A stretch of 64,000 nt of DNA from positions 225,404 to 289,403 of the forward strand of contig CAVWWK010000004.1 in the NCBI GenBank assembly GCA_963758715.1. Reading direction: 5' to 3'. Positions 4,300 through 23,043 of the stretch are shown in pieces. The translations under genes and the position numbers were made by a program. Position 1 is the stretch's first letter, and each line of letters starts with the position of its first letter. This DNA comes from an uncultured Actinomycetes bacterium (GTDB lineage: Bacteria > Actinomycetota > UBA4738 > HRBIN12). The notes beneath the pieces were generated by a model. It saw only the letters and a list, made by a program, of their open reading frames with translations. It ran no database searches and had not been told where the DNA came from.

Positions 4300-5571
4300 T
4301 CACGGGTCGAGTCCGCGGTTCCGCTGATGAGCCCGCGCTCGCGCCACCGACCAGATGGCGAGCACGCCGTAGAAGGCGGCCAGCACCAGGATCCCCTGGC
4401 GGAAGTCGATCGGCAGGATCGCGGGCAGGAGAGCCCCGCCGACCCACGCCAGCTGGAAGAGGACCTCATAGCGCACGAACACCCGGCCTTGCGCCCCCGG
4501 CGGCGCATGCCGCTGCATCAGGCTCTGGAACGCGAGACGTCCGAACTCGGTGGTCGCTCCCGCCACCAGCGCGTAGATCGTCAGGAGCGGCAGACCGAAG
4601 ATCTCGAACGCCAGCAAGGCGCCGATGCAGGCGGCGCTGACGCACGCGATCACGACGGCCTCCTCGCGGGTCGTCGTGGGCACCCGGGGCGCCACAACGT
4701 CGGCGAGGAACGTGCCCACCAGCCCGCCCGCGGCGAGGACAGCGAACCAGTAGGCGGGGGCGTCGTCCAGCCGCAGCGAGAAGGCCAGCAGGAAGAGCAG
4801 GAAGCCGCTCGCGGCTCGCAGGCCCACCGCGCCGACGGCGGGCGCTGCGAGGTCCGGGATGTGGCCGCGCGGCCCTACCGGCGCGGGGGGGGTCCCCCTC
4901 GTGCGCGGGTGCGGGAGCCGGAGGTTGAGCGCCGCGGAGATCGCGTACACCGCCGCGGCCAGGTAGATCGGTCCGGCGGATCCCCACGCCTTGAGCGCGG
5001 CGAACCCCAGCGGTGCCGCGACGACGGCGCCGACCGCGGCGAGGCGCCCGAGCCGCGCGTTCGCGCGCATCAGGCCCTCCTCGTGCGAGGCGTAGGCCAT
5101 CGTCAGCCCGTTCTTCGTGATGACGTGGATCTTGGACAGCACGAGCAGGACCAGCGCGGCGGGGAAGAGCAGCAGGGTCCCGAACCGGGGCGCCGCGTAG
5201 ATCGCCACCGCGGCCCGCCCGGCGGCGGCGGCGAACGAGATCGCGCGCCGGGGCCCTGCCCGATCGAGCAACGGCACGAGCAACGGCCCGGCGAGCGCCA
5301 ACGGAAGCATCGTGATCGCGAGGTACGCGGCGACTTTCAGCTTCGCCTCGCCCACCGGCAGCGAGAAGAACACCGAGTCGGCCAGCGCCACCGCCAGCAT
5401 CGCGTCGCCTGCGACCGACGTGAAATGGCAGAGCGCGTACGTGTCGAGGGGGTCGTTCGAGCGCCACATGCGCTGGAACGGGTGGATCGCGCCGCGCACG
5501 GCGCTCGACGTGCCGTAGACCACGAGTTGCCAGAACGGCACCCGATGCGGCCGTCCCGGCGAGGCGCGCAC
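4300..5571 (-). CDS. MFS transporter (start uncertain).
   Basis: About 12 hydrophobic segments, G/A/L-rich. The long ORF start is probably too far upstream (for example MWRSND at about 5469). Confidence 0.6.
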   Translation of the reverse strand: MRASPGRPHRVPFWQLVVYGTSSAVRGAIHPFQRMWRSNDPLDTYALCHFTSVAGDAMLAVALADSVFFSLPVGEAKLKVAAYLAITMLPLALAGPLLVPLLDRAGPRRAISFAAAAGRAAVAIYAAPRFGTLLLFPAALVLLVLSKIHVITKNGLTMAYASHEEGLMRANARLGRLAAVGAVVAAPLGFAALKAWGSAGPIYLAAAVYAISAALNLRLPHPRTRGTPPAPVGPRGHIPDLAAPAVGAVGLRAASGFLLFLLAFSLRLDDAPAYWFAVLAAGGLVGTFLADVVAPRVPTTTREEAVVIACVSAACIGALLAFEIFGLPLLTIYALVAGATTEFGRLAFQSLMQRHAPPGAQGRVFVRYEVLFQLAWVGGALLPAILPIDFRQGILVLAAFYGVLAIWSVARARAHQRNRGLDP

Positions 5572-7170: not shown

Positions 7171-8256
7171 ATGATGTCCGCCTCCTCCGCCGTCGACGCC
7201 GCGCGCGCCGAGGCCGGACCGTCCCGGGGCTTCTCATGGGCGGCGCTCGGCACGCTCTACATCGTCTGGGGCACGACCTACCTGGGCATCGCGAAGGTCA
7301 ACGGCTCGATCCCGCCGCTGGTGGGCGCCGCCGCGCGGTTCCTGGTTGCGGGCAGCCTTCTGTACGCGTTCCGCCGGTGGCGCACGGGCATCAGGCCCAC
7401 CGCCCGGCAGTGGCGGAGCACAGCGATCATCGGCATCTTCCTGGTGTTCGGGGGCAACGCGCTCGTCGCGATCAGCGAGGAGACGGTGCCCACCGGCATC
7501 GTGGCCCTGATCATCGCCCTAGTGCCGATCTGGCTCGCGTTGATCGACCGCGTGGTGCTCCGGAGCTCACCGCCGAGCTGGCGCACCGTCGTCGGGTTGA
7601 TCGCCGGATTCGGAGGCGCCGTCCTCCTGGTGGGGGGCTCGGCGGCGGGAGACATCGACCTCGTCGGCATGCTGGTCGCGGTGACCGCCTCGCTGGCGTG
7701 GGCAAGCGGGTCGATGTACGCCCGTGGGGCATCGCTACCCGACGACGCGCTGATGGCGAGCGGCATGCAGCAGTTGATGGGCAGCCTGGTGATCGCGAGC
7801 ATCGCCTTGGTGAGCGGCCAGTTCGGTGGTTTCAGCGTGGACCAGGTGACGCGGTCGTCGTGGCTCGGATTGCTCTACCTCATCGTCGTCGGGTCGTTCG
7901 TCGGCTTCAGCTGCTACCTGTGGCTCCTGCGCAACGTGCGCACGTCGCTGGTCTCGACGTACGCGTATGTGAACCCGGTGGTCGCGGTGACGCTGGGGAT
8001 CGTGGTGCTGAACGAGACGCTGACGCTGCGGATGGTCCTCGCGGGATCGGTGATCCTGGCGAGCGTGGCGTTGATCGTGACCTCCGGCGGCATGCACCGC
8101 ACCGACAGGCACGCCGGCCCGGCGTCAGAACCCGGCGACGAGCGGTGGTCGGAGGTCGAGGCCGAGCTCCCCTTCGAGGGCGGCGGCAGCGCGGAACAAC
8201 GTCTGCTCTCTCAGGACGGGGGCGGTGAGCTGCAGCCCGACCGGGAGCCCGGCTGA
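7171..8256 (+). CDS. EamA/DMT-family transporter.
   Basis: 361 aa, 10 predicted TM helices, duplicated EamA domain. Its 3' end overlaps the gatA 3' end convergently. Confidence 0.7.
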
Positions 8257-9600
8257 ATCCAGGCCGCACGGCACGCTGATCGCCGGCACGCCGGCGAGGT
8301 TGGCCGGGATCGTGAAGATGTCGTTCAGATACATCGCCATGGGATCGTCGACTTTGGACCCGATCGGGAATGCCGTCGTGGGCGAGGTCGGCGACACCAG
8401 GACATCGAAGTCGGAGAACGCGGCCTCGTAGTCACGGATGATGAGCGTGCGGACCTTCTGCGCCTGGCCGTAGTAGGCGTCGTAGTACCCGGCCGACAGC
8501 GCGTACGTGCCCAGCATGATCCGGCGCTTGACCTCGGCGCCGAACCCTGCGCCACGCGTTCGGAACATCATCTCGATCGAGTCGGCGCCCTCGACCCGCG
8601 ATCCGTACCGCACGCCGTCGTAGCGGGCCAGGTTGGACGAGGCCTCGCTAGGGGCGATCAGGTAGTAGGCGCTGAGCGCGTACCCGGCGTTCGGCAGCGA
8701 CGTCTCCCCGACCCGGGCGCCGAGCCCCGCGAGACGGTCGACCGCCGACCGCACCGACGCCGCGACGTCGGGCTCCACTCCTTCTCCGAACGCGTCGGCG
8801 AGCACGCCGATCCTCAGGCCTTCGACCCCCTCGGCGAGCCCCTCGCCGTAGTCGGGAACATCGACGTCCAGGCTGGTCGCGTCCCGGTGGTCCCGGCCGG
8901 CGAGCACGCCGAGCAGCGTCGCGGCATCGGTCACGCTCCGGGTGAAGGTCCCGACCGTGTCGAGCGAGGACGCGAACGCCACCAGGCCGAAGCGGCTGAT
9001 CAGCCCGTAGGTGGGCTTGAGGCCGACGACGCCGGTGAGCGAGGCGGGTTGGCGCACCGACCCTCCGGTGTCGGTTCCCAGCGCCCATACCGCGGCGCCC
9101 GCCGCGACGGCGGCGGCCGATCCCCCGCTGGATCCTCCGGGGACGCGGTCGAGGTTCCACGGGTTGTGGACGACGCCGTACGCGGAATTCTCGTTCGAGG
9201 AACCCATCGCGAACTCGTCGCAGTTGGTCTTTCCGACCAGCACGCTCCCCGCGCCCGACAGGCGCGCCCATGCCGTGCAGTCGTACGGGGGAACGTACGT
9301 CTCGAGGATCTTCGAGCCGCACGTGGTCCGGATGCCCTTCGTGGTGAGCACGTCCTTGAGCGCGGTGGGGATCCCCGCGACCCCCGATTGCGGCGCACCC
9401 GTCGCGAGGTAGGTGTCGAGCTCGCCCGCCCGCTCGCGAGCGACCTCGTGGGTGACCGACAGGAACGCGCCGAGGCGTTCGTTCACCGCGTCGAGCCGAG
9501 CCAGGCTGGAATCGGTCAGCTCGACCGCCGTGATCTCCCCCGCTCGCAGGCCCTCCGACAGCTCGCCGCCCGTACGATCGCAGAGCTCGGAGGCGGTCAC
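8125..9600 (-). CDS. gatA: Glutamyl-tRNA(Gln) amidotransferase subunit A (amidase signature).
   Basis: 491 aa. [14 protein letters not shown] amidase signature, [16 protein letters not shown]. Confidence 0.95.
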
Positions 9601-9922: not shown

Positions 9923-12678
<2,756 letters not shown>

Positions 12679-12747: not shown

Positions 12748-13824
12748 TCAGCGCAGGGACTCCACGATGCGGCCGCCGCCCAACAGGCGTTCCCCCTGGT
12801 AGAGCACCGCGCTCTGCCCGGGAGCCACGGCATGCTGCAGGGAGGAGAACCGCACACGGATCAGGTCGCCGTTGGGCACGACCTCGGCGGGCACGTCCTC
12901 GCCTCGATAGCGGATGCGAACGAGCGCCTCGAATCCTCCGTCGGCGGGAGGCTCCCCCGCCACCCACGAGACGCGGTCGGCGACCAGGCCGCCGCGAGCC
13001 AGGAGCTCCTTCGGTCCCACGACGATCCGATTCGCGGCGGCGTCCACGCCGACGACGTAGGCCGGCTCGCCGAGCGCGACGCCCAGCCCGCGGCGCTGCC
13101 CCACCGTGAACGCGAAGGTTCCGTCGTGTTCGGCGAGGACGCGGCCGGCAGGATCGACAACCTCGCCGCCCGCATGCACGAGCGCAGGCGCGTTGGAACG
13201 GACGAACCCCCCCGCGTCCCCGCTCGGTGCGAAGCACAGCTCCTGCGAATCGGGCTTGGACGCGACCGGGAGGCCGAACCGCTCGGCGTGGGAGCGCGTG
13301 ATCGCCTTCGGCATGCCGCCGACCGGGAAGAGGGATCGCTCGAGCTGAGCCTGGCCGAGCATGTGCAACATGTACGTCTGATCCTTCGCCCGGTCGGCGC
13401 CTCTGTGCAGCTCCCAGCGCCCGTCCGAGCCCTGGACCCGCCGGACGTAGTGACCCGTGGCCACGAAGTCCATCCCCAGCTCGTCGGCCCGGTCCAGGAA
13501 CGACCCGAACTTGATCTCGCCGTTGCAACGGGCGCACGGGTTCGGCGTCCGGCCTTCCCCGAGCTCGTCCGCGAAATCGGCGATCACCCGATCGGCGAAG
13601 ACCTGCGAGTGGTCCACGATCTCGAATCCGAATCCGCCGATCCGCGCGACCTCGGCCGCGTCGCCTCGAGCGGCGGGCCCGCAGCAGCCGTGCTCCACAC
13701 CGTCCAGGTGCACCAGCTCCATGTGGGAGCCCAGCACCTCGTACCCCTGCTCACGGAGCAGGCAGGCCGCGACCGACGAGTCCACCCCGCCCGACATCGC
13801 GACGAGCACCGATCCCTTCGACAT
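12748..13824 (-). CDS. mnmA: tRNA-specific 2-thiouridylase.
   Basis: 358 aa. PP-loop SGGVDSSV, catalytic Cys pair, full length. Confidence 0.93.
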   Translation of the reverse strand: MSKGSVLVAMSGGVDSSVAACLLREQGYEVLGSHMELVHLDGVEHGCCGPAARGDAAEVARIGGFGFEIVDHSQVFADRVIADFADELGEGRTPNPCARCNGEIKFGSFLDRADELGMDFVATGHYVRRVQGSDGRWELHRGADRAKDQTYMLHMLGQAQLERSLFPVGGMPKAITRSHAERFGLPVASKPDSQELCFAPSGDAGGFVRSNAPALVHAGGEVVDPAGRVLAEHDGTFAFTVGQRRGLGVALGEPAYVVGVDAAANRIVVGPKELLARGGLVADRVSWVAGEPPADGGFEALVRIRYRGEDVPAEVVPNGDLIRVRFSSLQHAVAPGQSAVLYQGERLLGGGRIVESLR

Positions 13825-17170: not shown

Positions 17171-18055
17171 CTACTCGTCGGTGACCGCCGCCCGCTCCAG
17201 CGCTCCGCGCACACCCGCAACGAGCGGCGTGCGCGAGATGCCGAACTCATCGGCCGCCGGGGGCGCGTCGGCCCGCGAGGGAGCGGCGAACCGGGCGATC
17301 GTCCACGGGGAGATCGGGATCCCCAGGAGCCCCTCGACGGCCACCCTCGCCGTTTCGCCGTCGACGTGGTCGGGCCTGGGAGAAGCCTCACCCGCCAGCA
17401 GCGTCTCCATCCCGTCGGCCGTGACCACGTCGGGACCCTCGAGGGCCCAGGTCCCCGCCAGACCGCCAGGCCGGTCGTCGACGGCGGCGAGCACGGAGGC
17501 CACGTCCTCGACGGCGACCGGCGCGACCGGCTGCGAGCCATCCCCCACCACCTGCGGGGGAGAGGCGCCGGCCCCCAACACCACGGTGGCGAACCACAGG
17601 CTGCCGGCCCCGTAGGCGTGCGTGCTCCGGATCACCGCGTGGTCGAGCCCGCTGGTGACCACCGCCTCCTCGGCCAGGCCCCTCGCGCGCAGGTACGGGT
17701 CGTCCGCGTCCACGGAAGCGCCGGGCGCCGAGATCAGCACGAAGCGGTGGACACCGGCGACCTTGGCCGCGGAAAGGGCACGCACCACCGACCCGTGATT
17801 GGCGTCGAGCAGCGCCTCCTCGTCCGGCTGGTTCGGACCACCCACGAGGTGGATCACCGTGTATACGTAGCGGAGGACCTCCGCCAGCGCGTCGGCGTCG
17901 TCGAGCCGTCCCACCGTGACCTTGGCACCCAGCCCACGGAGCGCTTCGGCCGCATGCGGGCTCCGCACCGCTGCCCGAACTTCGTCGTCGCGGAGGAGCA
18001 GCGGGACCAGCGCGTGCCCGATGGGCCCCGAGGCCCCCGTCACCATGACCGTCAT
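17171..18055 (-). CDS. NAD(P)-binding NmrA-like/SDR-family oxidoreductase.
   Basis: 294 aa. N-terminal VTGASGPIG Rossmann motif. 12 nt upstream of the hydratase. Confidence 0.7.
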   Translation of the reverse strand: MTVMVTGASGPIGHALVPLLLRDDEVRAAVRSPHAAEALRGLGAKVTVGRLDDADALAEVLRYVYTVIHLVGGPNQPDEEALLDANHGSVVRALSAAKVAGVHRFVLISAPGASVDADDPYLRARGLAEEAVVTSGLDHAVIRSTHAYGAGSLWFATVVLGAGASPPQVVGDGSQPVAPVAVEDVASVLAAVDDRPGGLAGTWALEGPDVVTADGMETLLAGEASPRPDHVDGETARVAVEGLLGIPISPWTIARFAAPSRADAPPAADEFGISRTPLVAGVRGALERAAVTDE

Positions 18056-18117
18056 GGCTCCGAAGGCTACCTACCCGCAGGTCCTGCGAACCGACGATCG
18101 CCCACCGCCTGAAGCGG

Positions 18118-18146
18118 CACCTGCAACGCTTCTTGCACCTGCAACG
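18118..18146. promoter_or_regulatory. Candidate operator in the fur-family promoter: CACCTGCAACG-N7-CACCTGCAACG, containing the palindrome TTGCAccTGCAA.
   Basis: Direct reading. The 15-mer CTTGCAccTGCAACG (18132-18146) recurs as CTTGCAgtTGCAACG upstream of cbiM (21308-21322). Confidence 0.45.
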
Positions 18147-18198
18147 TGCTGCTACCATCGACGACGTGAACCGGAACGCGCACGAATTCACCGACGTG

Positions 18199-18606
18199 AT
18201 GTCCCTGCTCCGCAGCAAGGGACTGCGCATGACCCCGCAACGCCGGGCGATCGTGACCGAAGTCATGCGCACCCGGGGCCACATCTCCCCCACGTCGATC
18301 GCCCGCAAGGTGCAGGGTGAGATGCCCGGGGTCAACGCGTCGACCGTCTACCGGACGCTGACCTTGCTCGAAGAGGTCGGGGTGTTGTCCCACTCGCACC
18401 TGGAGTCCGGCGCCGAGTACCACAAGGCCGAGGAAGCCGAGCACGTGCACCTGACCTGCTCGCGGTGCGGCAAGGACGATCCCCTTTCTCTGCTCGAGGC
18501 GCAGGCGATGCACGAGCTGATCCGCCGCCACCACGGGTTCGAGGCCGACCTCACGCATTTCGCGATCACGGGCCTGTGCTCGTCGTGCGCCGCGCTTGCG
18601 GGCTGA
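18199..18606 (+). CDS. Fur-family metalloregulator (Zur/Nur-like).
   Basis: MTPQRRAIV...HSHLE...HxH...CSRCG...CSSC gives a Fur fold with two CxxC pairs. The ORF track starts at TTG 18133, but ATG 18199 (MSLLRSKG) is the more likely start. Confidence 0.85.
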   Translation: MSLLRSKGLRMTPQRRAIVTEVMRTRGHISPTSIARKVQGEMPGVNASTVYRTLTLLEEVGVLSHSHLESGAEYHKAEEAEHVHLTCSRCGKDDPLSLLEAQAMHELIRRHHGFEADLTHFAITGLCSSCAALAG

Positions 18607-18615
18607 CGCCGCGGG

Positions 18616-19374
18616 CTAGCGGAAGGCTCGGTCGGGGAAGAACCCGAAGGGGAGCTCCAGGCGGTTGGCGGCCATCAGGGTCTCGTCGGCCAACAGATCC
18701 CTGGTCGGGCCGTCGGCGGCCAGGACGCCCTCGTTCATGACCACGGCACGAGGGCACAGCTCCAAGGCATACGGGAGGTCGTGGGTCACCATCAGCATCG
18801 TGATCTGCAGCGACAGCAGGATGTCGGCGAGCTCCCGTCGGCCGGCGGGATCCAGGTTCGAAGACGGCTCGTCGAGCACCAGGATCTCGGGCTCCATCGC
18901 GAGCACCGTTGCGACCGCGACCCGGCGGCGTTGCCCGAAGCTCAGGTGATGGGGAGGCCGGTCGGCGTATCCCTCCATGCCGACGGCACGCAGGGCTCGA
19001 TCGACGCACACGTCCAGCGCGTCCCCGCGCACACCCATGTTGGCGGGACCGAACGCGACGTCGTCGCGAACTGTGGGCATGAACAGCTGATCGTCGGGAT
19101 CCTGGAAGACGATCCCCACCCGGCGGCGGATCTCCTTCATGTGCTCCTTGGTGATCGGCAACCCTCCCACCAGCACCGACCCGTGCTGAGCCGTGTTGAT
19201 GCCGTTGAGGTGCATCACGAGCGTGGTCTTCCCTGCGCCGTTGGGCCCCAGAAGCGCGACGCGCTCGCCGACCCCGATCGTGAGGTCGATGCCGAAGAGC
19301 GCCTGGTGGCCGTCCGGGTAGGCGAACGCCAGGCGGGTGACCTCGAGCGCGGGCGCCGGGGACATCGCGCTCAT
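18616..19374 (-). CDS. cbiO: ECF transporter ATPase CbiO/EcfA.
   Basis: Walker A GPNGAGKTT, signature LSFGQRRR, Walker B LVLDEPSS. ATGA overlap with the cbiQ stop. Confidence 0.9.
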   Translation of the reverse strand: MSAMSPAPALEVTRLAFAYPDGHQALFGIDLTIGVGERVALLGPNGAGKTTLVMHLNGINTAQHGSVLVGGLPITKEHMKEIRRRVGIVFQDPDDQLFMPTVRDDVAFGPANMGVRGDALDVCVDRALRAVGMEGYADRPPHHLSFGQRRRVAVATVLAMEPEILVLDEPSSNLDPAGRRELADILLSLQITMLMVTHDLPYALELCPRAVVMNEGVLAADGPTRDLLADETLMAANRLELPFGFFPDRAFR

Positions 19375-20138
19375 GGCAGGAGGACCCAGGCCGCGATCGC
19401 GACGATCGTCGCGATGGCGGGCAGGGTCAGCGCCACGGCCCACTGGGCGACGCTCGCGCGACCCGTCTCCACCTCGGGGAGCCGGCCGTCGAAACCACGC
19501 GAGACCATCGCGAGATGGACCCGCTCCCCGCGTTCGTACGATCGGATGAACAGCGCGCCGGCCGAGGCCGCGAACCCCTTGGCCTGCCACAGCCACCGCG
19601 CGTCATAGCCCCGCGACTCACGCGCCACCTTCATGCGTCGCGCCTCTCCCGAGATGACCTCGGAGTAGCGGATCATGAACCCCGTGATCGAGGTGAACAC
19701 CGAGGGCAGGTAGAGGCGCTCCAACCCCCGGAGGAACTCGGGCACCGGCGTGGTGGCCGCGAGGATCACGCTGGCGGCCACGCCGATCGTGCCCTTGACC
19801 AGGATGTTCCACATCGCCCACAGGCCTTCGACCGACAACGAGAGACCGAGCACGTCGATCCGTTCACCCTGTCCCACCAACGGCAGGAACACGGCGAACA
19901 GGACGAACGGCACCTCGATCACCAGCCGCCTGGCCACGAAGCGCGGCGTGAGGTCGGCCAGCTGGGTGAGCGCCAGGAGCATCAGCGCATAGACCCCGAA
20001 TGCCCAGAACGCTTCCCGCGGGGTGGCGACCACAGCGAACACGAACAGCACGTGCGCCGCCAGCTTGCACTCGGGCCGGAGTCGGTGGATCGGGCTGTCC
20101 CCGTGGACGAAGAGCGCGTGCGCGTGGCCACCGGTCAT
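19371..20138 (-). CDS. cbiQ: ECF transporter transmembrane (T) component CbiQ/EcfT.
   Basis: Hydrophobic 5-6 TM protein, a CbiQ-family member by position. Start chosen at MTGGHAHALF (20138). Confidence 0.8.
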   Translation of the reverse strand: MTGGHAHALFVHGDSPIHRLRPECKLAAHVLFVFAVVATPREAFWAFGVYALMLLALTQLADLTPRFVARRLVIEVPFVLFAVFLPLVGQGERIDVLGLSLSVEGLWAMWNILVKGTIGVAASVILAATTPVPEFLRGLERLYLPSVFTSITGFMIRYSEVISGEARRMKVARESRGYDARWLWQAKGFAASAGALFIRSYERGERVHLAMVSRGFDGRLPEVETGRASVAQWAVALTLPAIATIVAIAAWVLLP

Positions 20139-20166
20139 GGCCGATCGCCCTCGAGACGCCGGCGGT

Positions 20167-20541
20167 TCACGTCGATGCGCCGGAGGACGCGGTGGCCGCG
20201 CCCGCTTCCCCCTCACCGTTCGGCTCACCCTTCAGCTTCGGGCGGAGGCTGAAGACCCCGAAGACCAGGAGTCCGGCCCCGAACGTCACGGCAACCCCGA
20301 TGACTCCGGACAGACCGGTGGCGAGGTCCTCGTCGTCCACGCCCCGGACCCCGTAGTCGGCCAGCGGGCTCTCGGCGGTCGTATGCTCGGTCGCCGTGTC
20401 GGCGAAGCCTTCGTCCTGGGCGACCTTCTCGAGACCATCGGGCGAGCTGCTCGCGAAGCGGCTGACGACGAACGCCAACCCGAGCACGACCAACAGACCT
20501 CCGATCATCAGCGCCCAGCTGCCCGCCCGCCTCCGCGCCAT
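20167..20541 (-). CDS. PDGLE-domain membrane protein (CbiN-like auxiliary component).
   Basis: 124 aa. Literal SPDGLEKVA motif, flanked by an N-terminal and a C-terminal TM helix. Its ATG overlaps the cbiM stop (TGATG). Confidence 0.7.
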   Translation of the reverse strand: MARRRAGSWALMIGGLLVVLGLAFVVSRFASSSPDGLEKVAQDEGFADTATEHTTAESPLADYGVRGVDDEDLATGLSGVIGVAVTFGAGLLVFGVFSLRPKLKGEPNGEGEAGAATASSGAST

Positions 20542-21236
20542 CACGACCTCCCCACGATGGCCTGCTGGTCGCGCAGCTGCAGGTCCGGGAGCAGATCCTG
20601 CGCTCCGTAGACGAGGTCGGGTCGAACACCGATCACGACGCCCACGGTCATCGCGGTGATGATGCCCTCGCCGATCCCGATCAGGAAGTGGGTGCCGACC
20701 ATGGCGGCGAGCACCGTTCCGATGGACGCTCCGCCGTTGCCGCCGAGGGAGTACTCGAGCACGAACCCCGCGGCCGCGAGCACGACCGAGAGCATCGCGG
20801 CGATCGCCGAGGCGGCAACGACCGACCCGCGATTGGCGGGCAGCACACCGCGGATCCCCTTGAACACCAGATACCCGCCCCAGCCGGCGATCAGGGACAT
20901 GTTGAGCACGTTGAGCCCCAACGCGGTCAGCCCACCGTCGGCGAAGAGCAGCGCCTGCACCAGCAGCACCACCGCAACGGCGACGGCGCCAGCGTACGGC
21001 CCGACCAGGATCGCCGCGAGACACCCGCCGAGGAGGTGGCCGCTCGTGCCCGATGCGACGGGGAAGTTCAGCATCTGGACCGCGAAGATGAAGGCGGCGA
21101 CCAGACCCGCCATGGGCGCCAGCCGCTCCGACAAGGTCTCCTTGGCCTTGACCAGGCTGTAGCCGATACCTCCGGCGGAGACCACCCCGGCGGCGGCGGA
21201 CACACCCGCGTTGATGAACCCGTCCGGTATGTGCAC
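20541..21236 (-). CDS. cbiM: Cobalt/nickel ECF transporter substrate-capture subunit CbiM.
   Basis: MHIPDGF N-terminus, a CbiM/NikM hallmark. GTG start preceded by GAGGGG. Confidence 0.9.
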   Translation of the reverse strand: MHIPDGFINAGVSAAAGVVSAGGIGYSLVKAKETLSERLAPMAGLVAAFIFAVQMLNFPVASGTSGHLLGGCLAAILVGPYAGAVAVAVVLLVQALLFADGGLTALGLNVLNMSLIAGWGGYLVFKGIRGVLPANRGSVVAASAIAAMLSVVLAAAGFVLEYSLGGNGGASIGTVLAAMVGTHFLIGIGEGIITAMTVGVVIGVRPDLVYGAQDLLPDLQLRDQQAIVGRS

Positions 21237-21307
21237 GTGCTTCCCCTCGCTTCAGGCCCCTCGCTTCAGACGACCGGTCTTCAGGAGCCCCGTTTCAGGT
21301 GCCGGGC

Positions 21308-21374
21308 CTTGCAGTTGCAACGAACTGCGAGAAGTCATGCCCCCTGTATATCGCTCGACATCGCCGAACGTCAA
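21308..21374 (-). promoter_or_regulatory. Candidate cbi promoter (-35 TTGACG, 18-nt spacer, -10 TATACA on the minus strand) with operator-like CGTTGCAACTGCAAG just downstream.
   Basis: Reverse complement of 21345-21374 reads TTGACG-N18-TATACA. The 15-mer at 21308-21322 matches the motif in the fur promoter at 13 of 15 positions. Confidence 0.5.
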
Positions 21375-21399
21375 GGAACGACCCGGCGGGTCGCGGCGG

Positions 21400-23043
21400 T
21401 CAGAAGCGCGGCGTCTCCCGGTAATCGCCGAAGACCTCGATGAGCGCGCGGACGATCTCCCCTTCCGTGCAGCCCGCCCGGGCGCACGCGACCATCGGAT
21501 CGATCAGGTTCGCGTCGGTGTTCGCGGCGGCTGTGAGGGCCGTCAGTGCAGAGGCGGAGGCGCCCCCGTCACGGCCTGCGCGCATCCGCGACACCGCTTC
21601 TCGTTGGGCGGCCTCGGCCTGCGGCCCGATCACCAGCGTGTCGATCGGGCGTTCGTCTGACTCGATGAACGCGTTGACGCCCACCTTCACCAGGTCGCCC
21701 GACTCGTATCGGCGTTGCTCCTCGAACGCGGCGTCGGCGATCCGCTGCTGGAACCATCCCCGGTCGATCCCCGCCAGCACCCCCTCGAGGATCGACCCGC
21801 CTCCCATCGCGTCGATGTGCTCGAAGAGCTCCTCGGCCTGTGCCTCGATGCGGTCGGTCATCGACTCCATGAAGTAGGAACCGGCGAGAGGATCGATCGT
21901 GTCGGGGACACCGGATTCGAAGGCGATCACCTGCTGGGTGCGCAGCGCGAGCTTCGCGGCCTGCTCCGTCGGAAGGGCGAGCACCTCGTCGAGCGCGTTC
22001 GTGTGCAGCGACTGCGTGCCGCCGAGCACCGCCGCGAGCGCCTCCGTGCTCGTGCGCACCACGTTGTTCATGGGCTGCTGCGCCGTGTTCGACACGCCGG
22101 CCGTCTGCGTGTGGAAGCGCATAAGCATCGCCGAGGGCGCGTTCGCTCCGTAGCGGTCGCGCAACCAACGGGCCCAGATCCGTCGAGCGGCGCGGAACTT
22201 CGCGATCTCCTCGAAGAAGTCGATGTGGCTGTTGAAGAAGAACGACAACCCTGACGCGAAGTCGTCGACGTCCAGTCCGCGCTGCAGGCCAAGCTCGACG
22301 TAGGCGAACCCGTCGGCCAGCGTGAAGGCCAGCTCCTGCGCGGCGGTCGAGCCAGCCTCACGGATGTGGTAGCCGCTGACGCTGACCGGATGGAACTTGG
22401 GGCACCGCTCCGCGCAGAAGGCCATGAGATCGCCGATCAGCCGCAGGTGCGGCCGCGGCGGGAAGATCCACTCCTTCTGCGCGATGTATTCCTTCAGGAT
22501 GTCGGTCTGCAGGGTTCCGTCGAGTCGCTCCCAGGGCACGCCCTGTCGTTCAGCGGCAGCCAGGAAGAACGCGAACGCCACGGTCGCGGGTCCGCTGATC
22601 GTCATCGAGGTCGTGATCTCGCCGAGCGGGATGCCGTCGAAGAGCGCCTCGAAGTCCGCCAGGGAATCGGTGGCGACGCCGCAGCGGCCGACCTCGCCTT
22701 CGCTCCGGGGATCGTCGGAGTCCAGGCCCATCAACGTCGGCATGTCGAACGCGACACTGAGGCCGCCCTGCCCCTGCTCGAGCAGGAATCGATAGCGGGC
22801 GTTGGTCTCCGCGGGGGTACCGAATCCGGCGAACTGCCGCATGGTCCACAGACGCCCGCGGTACATCGTCGGATAGACGCCGCGGGTGAAGGGATAGCTC
22901 CCGGGTTCGCCCAGCCGCTCGTCGGGACGCCAACCCTCCAGGTCCTCCGGGGCCGCGAGAGCGGGGACGGGCTCGCCCGAGATGGTTCGATGCGAACGCT
23001 CCTGGGACGGGGCGGTCTCGGTCCGTTCTGAGGCGTCGGTCAC
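21400..23043 (-). CDS. Acyl-CoA mutase large (catalytic TIM-barrel) subunit, methylmalonyl/isobutyryl-CoA mutase family. There is no B12-binding domain.
   Basis: 547 aa. FTRGVYPTMYRGRLWTMRQFAGFG and SGYHIREAG motifs. It ends before the B12-binding domain would begin. Confidence 0.9.
   Translation of the reverse strand: MTDASERTETAPSQERSHRTISGEPVPALAAPEDLEGWRPDERLGEPGSYPFTRGVYPTMYRGRLWTMRQFAGFGTPAETNARYRFLLEQGQGGLSVAFDMPTLMGLDSDDPRSEGEVGRCGVATDSLADFEALFDGIPLGEITTSMTISGPATVAFAFFLAAAERQGVPWERLDGTLQTDILKEYIAQKEWIFPPRPHLRLIGDLMAFCAERCPKFHPVSVSGYHIREAGSTAAQELAFTLADGFAYVELGLQRGLDVDDFASGLSFFFNSHIDFFEEIAKFRAARRIWARWLRDRYGANAPSAMLMRFHTQTAGVSNTAQQPMNNVVRTSTEALAAVLGGTQSLHTNALDEVLALPTEQAAKLALRTQQVIAFESGVPDTIDPLAGSYFMESMTDRIEAQAEELFEHIDAMGGGSILEGVLAGIDRGWFQQRIADAAFEEQRRYESGDLVKVGVNAFIESDERPIDTLVIGPQAEAAQREAVSRMRAGRDGGASASALTALTAAANTDANLIDPMVACARAGCTEGEIVRALIEVFGDYRETPRF

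Follow-up and report, generated by a model that had tools for sequence, protein, structure and literature searches.

We examined a 64,000-nucleotide stretch of an uncultured actinobacterial genome (contig CAVWWK010000004.1, positions 225,404 to 289,403; hereafter the window), in which two copies of a palindromic motif lie upstream of a Fur-family regulator gene and upstream of cbiM, in an operon for a nickel/cobalt transporter of the energy-coupling factor (ECF) type. Both copies are probably operators of the Nur-type Fur-family metalloregulator encoded at 18166-18606, a reading to which we give a probability of about 0.8. Operator function, autoregulation, control of the transporter and the Nur-like identity of the regulator are all supported at the level of computation. 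That a Nur-type repressor controls nickel or cobalt import is known; what is new is the operator geometry, the proposed autoregulation and the genomic coupling. The features at the center of the argument are these:

18132-18146, plus strand: motif copy CTTGCAccTGCAACG, upstream of the regulator gene
18166-18606, plus strand: gene for the Nur-like Fur-family regulator, 146 aa (PF01475), start codon GTG at 18166
21308-21322, plus strand: motif copy CTTGCAgtTGCAACG, upstream of cbiM

A palindrome conserved at two classes of promoter

The two motif copies agree at 13 of 15 positions and share the palindromic core TTGCA-N2-TGCAA, and they stand exactly where the original prediction had placed them; the direct repeat CACCTGCAACG-N7-CACCTGCAACG around the first copy (units at 18118-18128 and 18136-18146), which it had also described, is borne out by the sequence. 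Statistics from the window alone are weak and only suggestive. With up to two mismatches the 15-mer matches four times against 0.66 expected, a count reached in 0 of 100 shuffles, two of the four being a single palindromic site counted on both strands; with up to one mismatch the 12-mer TTGCANNTGCAA matches twice against 0.35 expected, a count reached in 7 of 100 shuffles. A further two-mismatch match to the 15-mer, CTCGCCGTTGCAACG at 13516-13530, lies within an mnmA-like coding region, lacks the first half-site and is most likely due to chance.

The comparison set comprised 80 loci (964 kb) of uncultured Actinomycetota, drawn from a scan of species-representative genomes and chosen by regulator orthologs at 71-87% identity. 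They share a syntenic order of epimerase gene, regulator gene, in some cases cbiOQNM, and the gene for methylmalonyl-CoA mutase (mcm). The original prediction had named a comparison with relatives as a check on the motif, and its outcome is clear: the 80 loci hold 100 exact copies of TTGCANNTGCAA against about 0.2 in shuffles, all of them at two promoter classes, that of the regulator and the cbiM type. Of these, 78 precede the regulator gene by at most 80 nt, and another 21 are found in front of cbiM or of distant cbiM-like genes (35-38% identity). The remaining copy belongs to locus L064, where the surrounding sequence is closely similar to the upstream region of the cbiM-like gene in locus L075; by this similarity the L064 gene would also be cbiM-like. 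Since the two loci without an exact copy at the regulator gene hold one-mismatch versions, the palindrome is present in 80 of 80 regulator promoters (78 exact), and nearly all promoters of the cbiM type have retained it too.

Information content is maximal across the hexamers of the palindrome and near zero in the flanking intergenic sequence. Because the flanks have diverged while the hexamers remain at the maximum, this pattern is a phylogenetic footprint and not a trace of recent common ancestry. The regulator gene has its site irrespective of whether cbiMNQO is present, and it is the only regulator gene conserved in this neighbourhood across the 80 loci. We also scanned metagenome contigs with GCAAN{3,7}TTGCANNTGCAA; among the matches listed none was accompanied by a Fur or CbiM relative, and nearly all of these were chance matches in low-GC organisms, which makes them uninformative for regulon discovery. 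Locus L075 (JBLMXP010000239.1) comes from a metagenome-assembled genome labelled Planctomycetaceae; its gene order is the actinobacterial one, its regulator is 75% identical and the operator is present. The taxon label is probably a binning error of that assembly.

Architecture of the proposed operators and predicted promoters

The 15-bp motif is real as a shared element, but the true element is longer, with a third hexamer 4 nt past the 12-mer. It reads TTGCAN/NTGCAA-N4-nTGCnn, two abutting hexamers (the slash marks their junction) and a third at a fixed distance. On the plus strand of the window both sites conform to gTTGCA-NN-TGCAAc-N4-nTGCnn, the regulator site as TTGCAC/CTGCAA-cgtg-CTGCTA and the transporter site as TTGCAG/TTGCAA-cgaa-CTGCGA. 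The elements of the two promoter regions are as follows:

18121-18126, plus strand: upstream auxiliary hexamer CTGCAA, in the direct repeat, 6 nt 5' of the core
18133-18144, plus strand: core palindrome TTGCAC/CTGCAA, at about -33 to -22 of the regulator promoter, exact in 78 of 80 loci
18149-18154, plus strand: third hexamer CTGCTA, 4 nt past the core, overlapping the extended -10
18153-18158, plus strand: predicted -10 TACCAT (TANNNT) of the regulator gene, with the extended -10 TG at 18150-18151 and the GTG at 18166 following 7 nt on
21309-21320, minus strand: transporter core palindrome, TTGCAA/CTGCAA in the sense direction, at about +18 to +29 of the predicted transcription start
21325-21330, minus strand: transporter third hexamer, TCGCAG in the sense direction (CTGCGA on the plus strand), on the promoter side, 4 nt from the core, at about +8 to +13
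21345-21350, minus strand: predicted -10 TATACA of the transporter promoter; TANNN(T/A) lies 17-18 nt past the -35 in 22 of 23 sites
21369-21374, minus strand: predicted -35 TTGACG of the transporter promoter; TTGACG lies at a conserved distance in 22 of 23 sites

The third hexamer is conserved at both promoter classes and with the same 6-4-6 spacing. Its TGC is found in about 90% of the orthologous regulator sites, with CTGCTA itself in 67 of 76, and all 22 cbiM-type sites have the corresponding GCA at precisely this offset, the background frequency being 1.7%. The pattern GCA-N6-TGCA-N2-TGC matches the window twice, at precisely the two sites, and the 80 loci 115 times, compared with 0-4 matches in shuffles; 75 of the 115 fall at regulator promoters and nearly all others at transporter promoters. 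About half of the regulator promoters, that of the window included, carry an extra hexamer 5-7 nt 5' of the core: among 78 orthologous sites an upstream GCA core stands at N5 in 14, at N6 in 25 and at N7 in 4, and is absent or distant in the rest. Arrays of four hexamers also occur, in a symmetric 6-4-6-0-6-4-6 arrangement in L001 (about 10034-10061) and L003-L005, and as 6-4-6-4-6-0-6, extending back to the -10, upstream of cbiM in L050 and L052. These suggest a graded operator strength among the relatives.

At the regulator gene, the core is followed throughout the 80 loci by N4-cTGcTAnnnT, an extended -10, and then by GTG or ATG 6-11 nt later. The promoter thus described looks leaderless or near-leaderless, with no usable -35, and the array spans about -33 to -11 and includes the -10. 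At cbiM-type genes the third hexamer begins 12-15 nt past the TANNN(T/A) hexamer, and the array spans about +7 to +29, downstream of TTGACG-N17/18-TANNNT/A. In the window itself, the minus-strand TTGACG (21374-21369), 18-nt spacer and TATACA (21350-21345) that had been picked out as a candidate promoter are present 5' of the cbiM start at 21236. A strict sigma-70 promoter scan of 17950-21500 called no promoter, since TATACA does not end in T and the regulator promoter is without a -35; we base the promoter assignments on conservation among the loci. In both array positions a bound protein would be expected to repress. We considered TTGCAC as the -35 hexamer of the regulator promoter and rejected it: its distance from the -10 is just 14 nt, and at cbiM the palindrome is found 3' of the start site.

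The leader between operator and start codon at cbiM varies from 19 to 72 nt over 23 relatives, the 72 nt of the window being the longest. This leader contains a perfect 14-nt tandem duplication at 21243-21269 (CCCCTCGCTTCAGG, 1.9 copies), which doubles a Shine-Dalgarno-like GAGGGG on the sense strand. Rfam searches for riboswitches were empty in the window (gathering score), in 17900-21700 (E up to 10) and in 10 related loci, and we therefore rejected a cobalamin or other riboswitch in the cbiM leader.

A Nur-like regulator

The regulator matches PF01475 with an E-value of 4.3e-22 (79 bits, cut-off 23.1). Its start is most likely the GTG at 18166, since an identical 146-aa database protein (P0001) and the N-termini of homologs align there. 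The ATG at 18199 would then be internal, and the motif ends 20 nt before the start codon, not about 55 nt as the original prediction had it from a fur ATG.

Among solved structures the best match is Streptomyces coelicolor Nur (3EYY; E 1.3e-29, 106.6 bits, 44% identity), followed by Fur at 61 bits, PerR at 59 and Zur-type chains (Mycobacterium tuberculosis FurB 2O03; 3MWM) at 34-44; none of the NCBIfam models for Fur, Zur and PerR matched the protein at cut-off. The Ni-site histidines of Nur, H70, H72 and H126, which are conserved solely in Nur orthologs (An et al. 2009, PMC2691836), correspond to H76, H78 and H131 here and are invariant in 21 family members. M-site residues H33, H88 and H90 correspond to H39, H93 and H95, and the two proteins have the same recognition helix, STVYRTL, which includes the DNA-contact residues Y56 and R57; the M-site residues and those of the helix are invariant in the family alignment. 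The assignment as Nur-like, and not Zur or Fur, that had been proposed from the half-site is thus supported by the 3EYY match and the Ni-site histidines.

The half-site itself agrees with published work, as the original prediction had noticed. The Nur box is tTGCaa-N5-ttGCAA, with TTGCAA as half-site, and S. coelicolor Nur binds the nikM promoter in a nickel-dependent manner (An et al. 2009, PMC2691836), so that both the half-site and one target class match those of the known Nur.

Two kinds of importer behind similar hexamer arrays

The ECF transporter operon lies on the minus strand, convergent with the regulator gene:

18616-19374, minus strand: ECF transporter ATPase CbiO/NikO (PF00005, TIGR01166); its start overlaps the cbiQ stop (ATGA)
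19371-20138, minus strand: ECF T component CbiQ/NikQ (PF02361; TIGR02454 above cut-off)
20167-20541, minus strand: N component, a small membrane protein with a PDGLE domain (PF13190, E 5e-21); its start overlaps the cbiM stop
20541-21236, minus strand: S component CbiM/NikM (PF01891, E 8e-58), with the N-terminus MHIPDG

Stop and start codons overlap at two of the three junctions. The presence of Met1-His2 and His67 in CbiM, together with PF01891, PF13190, PF02361 and PF00005 in one operon, marks the system as a Nik/CbiMNQO ECF importer. CbiM keeps His67, Gln94, Gly101, Gly102 and Asn109; the roles of residues in NikM/CbiM proteins, metal ligands among them, have been described (PMC3945884).

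In loci without cbiMNQO, the slot between the regulator gene and mcm holds a gene for a 322-aa membrane protein with a His-rich loop and the motif FRHGIDWDH, which matches the NicO/NiCoT family (PF03824) at 31.3 bits against a cut-off of 27.7. This NiCoT permease replaces cbiMNQO in at least 15 loci (L014, at 7460-8428; L025, L027, L042-L044, L046, L047, L051, L055, L063, L065, L066, L076 and L080). Ten of them have strict 6-4-6-0-6 arrays upstream, such as TCGCAA-tagc-TTGCAG/TTGCCG, and the arrays of the other five are variants, for instance 6-4-6 or 6-4-6-4-6. The slot is thus polymorphic: it is occupied by cbiMNQO, a distant cbiM-type ECF system or NiCoT, and some loci have no importer of the Cbi or NiCoT type there. 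That two different nickel/cobalt importers share this position and are preceded by operators of one kind is strong functional evidence. The proposal that the regulator controls both its own gene and the transporter is accordingly upheld at the level of computation: the motif tracks the regulator gene, and the array precedes the NiCoT gene as well.

Metal specificity and alternative readings

Nickel is favoured as the metal that is sensed and transported, because the regulator has the Nur Ni-site, the M component is closer to TtNikM2 than to RcCbiM, the N component is of the PDGLE type, and no B12 riboswitch or cob genes were found. The same circuit might instead sense cobalt (a 'Co-Nur'), with the transporter serving cobalt supply for B12, a variant that we regard as possible and rather unlikely. 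It would suit the position of the operon directly downstream of the genes for the B12-dependent methylmalonyl-CoA mutase and MeaB; yet the mcm neighbourhood persists in loci without a transporter, so that the adjacency looks incidental. In the Pfam and NCBIfam models the M component goes under the name CbiM, but among solved structures it is nearer to TtNikM2 (4M5B/4M58, about 77 bits) than to RcCbiM (5X3X, 51 bits), and no Pfam CbiN-family match was reported for the N component. The NikM2 site fits cobalt besides nickel (PMC3945884) and NiCoT permeases carry either metal; on the side of the regulator, however, the histidine triad is that of the nickel-selective Nur, and the usual marks of cobalt specificity, a B12 riboswitch and nearby cob genes, were not found.

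It is improbable that the sites are true operators bound by another transcription factor encoded elsewhere, with the Fur-family gene merely one of its targets. The identity of the binder is a prediction, and the site geometry departs from the published Nur box; even so, all 80 loci have the site at the Fur-family gene whatever the neighbours, the hexamer is the Nur half-site, the recognition helix is identical to that of Nur, and no other conserved regulator gene lies nearby. That the similarity reflects chance, a core promoter element or an RNA structure, as the 7 of 100 window shuffles with two 12-mers and the loosely -35-like TTGCAC might have hinted, is already refuted by the comparative data: the 100 exact copies against about 0.2 expected all fall at two promoter classes, the motif occupies -33 to -22 of the regulator promoter but +18 to +29 of the transporter promoter and so cannot be one core promoter element, and an RNA stem of 5 bp closed by a 2-nt loop could not form, in leaders that vary from 19 to 72 nt and give no Rfam match.

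Several observations weigh against operators of a Nur-type regulator, or against parts of that reading. In place of the M-site residue His86 of Nur the protein has Ala91; Nur itself, when mutated to H86A, retained DNA binding (An et al. 2009, PMC2691836), and H81, which corresponds to H86 here, has been proposed as a substitute ligand for H86 (PMC2691836). At the regulator promoter the third hexamer coincides with the extended -10, and its conservation there could therefore reflect promoter function alone. The -10 of the window transporter promoter (TATACA) is without its usual final T. A TTGCAA-N5-TTGCAA Nur box with up to three mismatches has no match in the window, so DNA recognition by S. 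coelicolor Nur is not simply transferable. Lastly, the metal may be either of the two, as TtNikM2 takes nickel and cobalt (PMC3945884) and the window is free of nickel enzymes.

A model for the hexamer-array operator

In the mechanism that we propose, the metal-loaded regulator, most likely with Ni(II) and possibly with Co(II), would bind an array of TTGCAA-like hexamers. At its own gene, binding over the extended -10 would block RNA polymerase and result in negative autoregulation. At nik/cbiMNQO it would block open-complex formation or promoter escape, turning nickel/cobalt uptake off when the metal is sufficient. As to stoichiometry, two dimers may occupy a pair of adjoining 6-4-6 units, each of which would be the Nur box (6-5-6) in shortened form, and the inner half-sites of the units would meet in the invariant 12-mer; the four-hexamer sites that are symmetric would fit such an arrangement. 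Alternatively, one dimer could sit on the compact palindrome, as classical Fur does on 7-1-7, with the outer hexamers assisting.

We put forward only tentatively the more specific proposal that the protein is a Nur ortholog with abutting 6-4-6 geometry, an invariant 6-0-6 junction, two dimers and autoregulation via a leaderless promoter. Short-spacer boxes have been argued not to be recognised by the Nur branch (An et al. 2009, PMC2691836). If the proposal is true, the view that the Ni-site fixes Nur to long-spacer 6-5-6 boxes would fail across the subfamily, and the Nur box would be redefined as a hexamer array. On this proposal, too, cobalt might be the metal that is sensed.

Comparison with known systems

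The regulator resembles S. coelicolor Nur (3EYY) in its Fur fold, its 44% identity, the Ni-site histidine triad, three of four M-site histidines and the recognition helix, and its sites resemble those of Nur in the TTGCAA-type half-site, in the ECF-type nikM operon as a target and in lying over or beside promoters, as for a repressor. The systems differ in that the S. coelicolor box is 6-5-6, whereas the sites here have an invariant 6-0-6 with further hexamers at N4 (6-4-6); in the adjacency of the regulator to its transporter target, which S. coelicolor Nur lacks; and in the replacement of His86 by Ala. The regulator gene here also has an operator of its own, unlike the Streptomyces and Nonomuraea nur genes, whose promoters are without the TTGCA motif. 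Autoregulation as a general feature of Nur is thereby rejected, and autoregulation through the 12-mer operator seems specific to the lineage studied.

In Streptomyces (L081-L086) nur follows a nitrobindin-like (THAP4 heme-binding) gene by 15 nt and is succeeded by ygfZ, while in Nonomuraea gerenzanensis (L209) it stands alone; their promoters have a -10, TAGACT or TAGTAT, 6-7 nt before the start codon, and are of the leaderless type. Upstream of a Nonomuraea cbiM homolog (59% identity; L207, about 4930-4960, NZ_LT559118.1) we found TTGCCA-N5-GTGCAG/CTGCAA, a three-hexamer array with the N5 of the Streptomyces type. This single example hints that abutting hexamers are perhaps more general. The 11.85-Mb sequence NZ_LT559118.1 is labelled 'plasmid I' in PLSDB and is evidently the chromosome.

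With the classical Fur, PerR and Zur boxes, which are 7-1-7 inverted repeats or hexamer arrays for two overlapping dimers, the operators share a compact hexamer palindrome and arrays of three or four hexamers; they differ in a hexamer that is TTGCAA-like and not GATAAT-like and in a central spacer of 2 nt, with none between the hexamers. The 6-bp unit offset recalls the overlapping-dimer model of the 19-bp Fur box that Baichoo and Helmann reportedly presented in 2002. Like Nik/CbiMNQO operons under NikR or a B12 riboswitch, the present system would provide a metal-dependent shut-off of an ECF-type nickel/cobalt importer; unlike them, it has no riboswitch, and its candidate regulator is a Fur-family protein.

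Nur has so far been characterised only in S. coelicolor, at four footprinted promoters, and most actinobacterial Cbi/NikMNQO systems have been left without an assigned regulator or metal (13 of 15 without a metal assignment in Zhang et al. 2009). The present set adds about 140 natural sites, at regulator, cbiM-type and NiCoT promoters of a widespread soil lineage, which define a conserved Nur-type regulon of the regulator itself, the ECF importer and the NiCoT permease. They supply a testable hexamer-array grammar for operators whose geometry is unlike that of the textbook Nur box, and could be used both to annotate nickel/cobalt homeostasis in uncultured Actinomycetota and as a natural experiment on the reading of half-site spacing by Fur-family proteins.

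Genomic neighbourhood

The window has a G+C content of 70%. The genes for methylmalonyl-CoA mutase and MeaB lie upstream of the cbi operon, and the gene on the other side of the regulator is the following:

17171-18055, minus strand: NAD-dependent epimerase-like gene

The rest of the window carries housekeeping genes, among them gatAB, ligA, mnmA, pabB, the ATP synthase operon, glyA, prfA and rho, and a search across it for nickel or cobalt enzymes and cob genes found none besides the adjacent B12-dependent methylmalonyl-CoA mutase and MeaB. The convergent regulator gene and cbiO are separated by 9 bp between their stop codons (18604-18618), with no terminator-like hairpin found between them, so that transcription from either side may continue into the opposing gene. 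A gene of about 320 aa, which the window is without, stands between the epimerase and regulator genes in about half of the relatives (for example L001, 5985-6947); judged by eye it is apparently phosphotransferase-like, and it ends about 10 nt before the operator.

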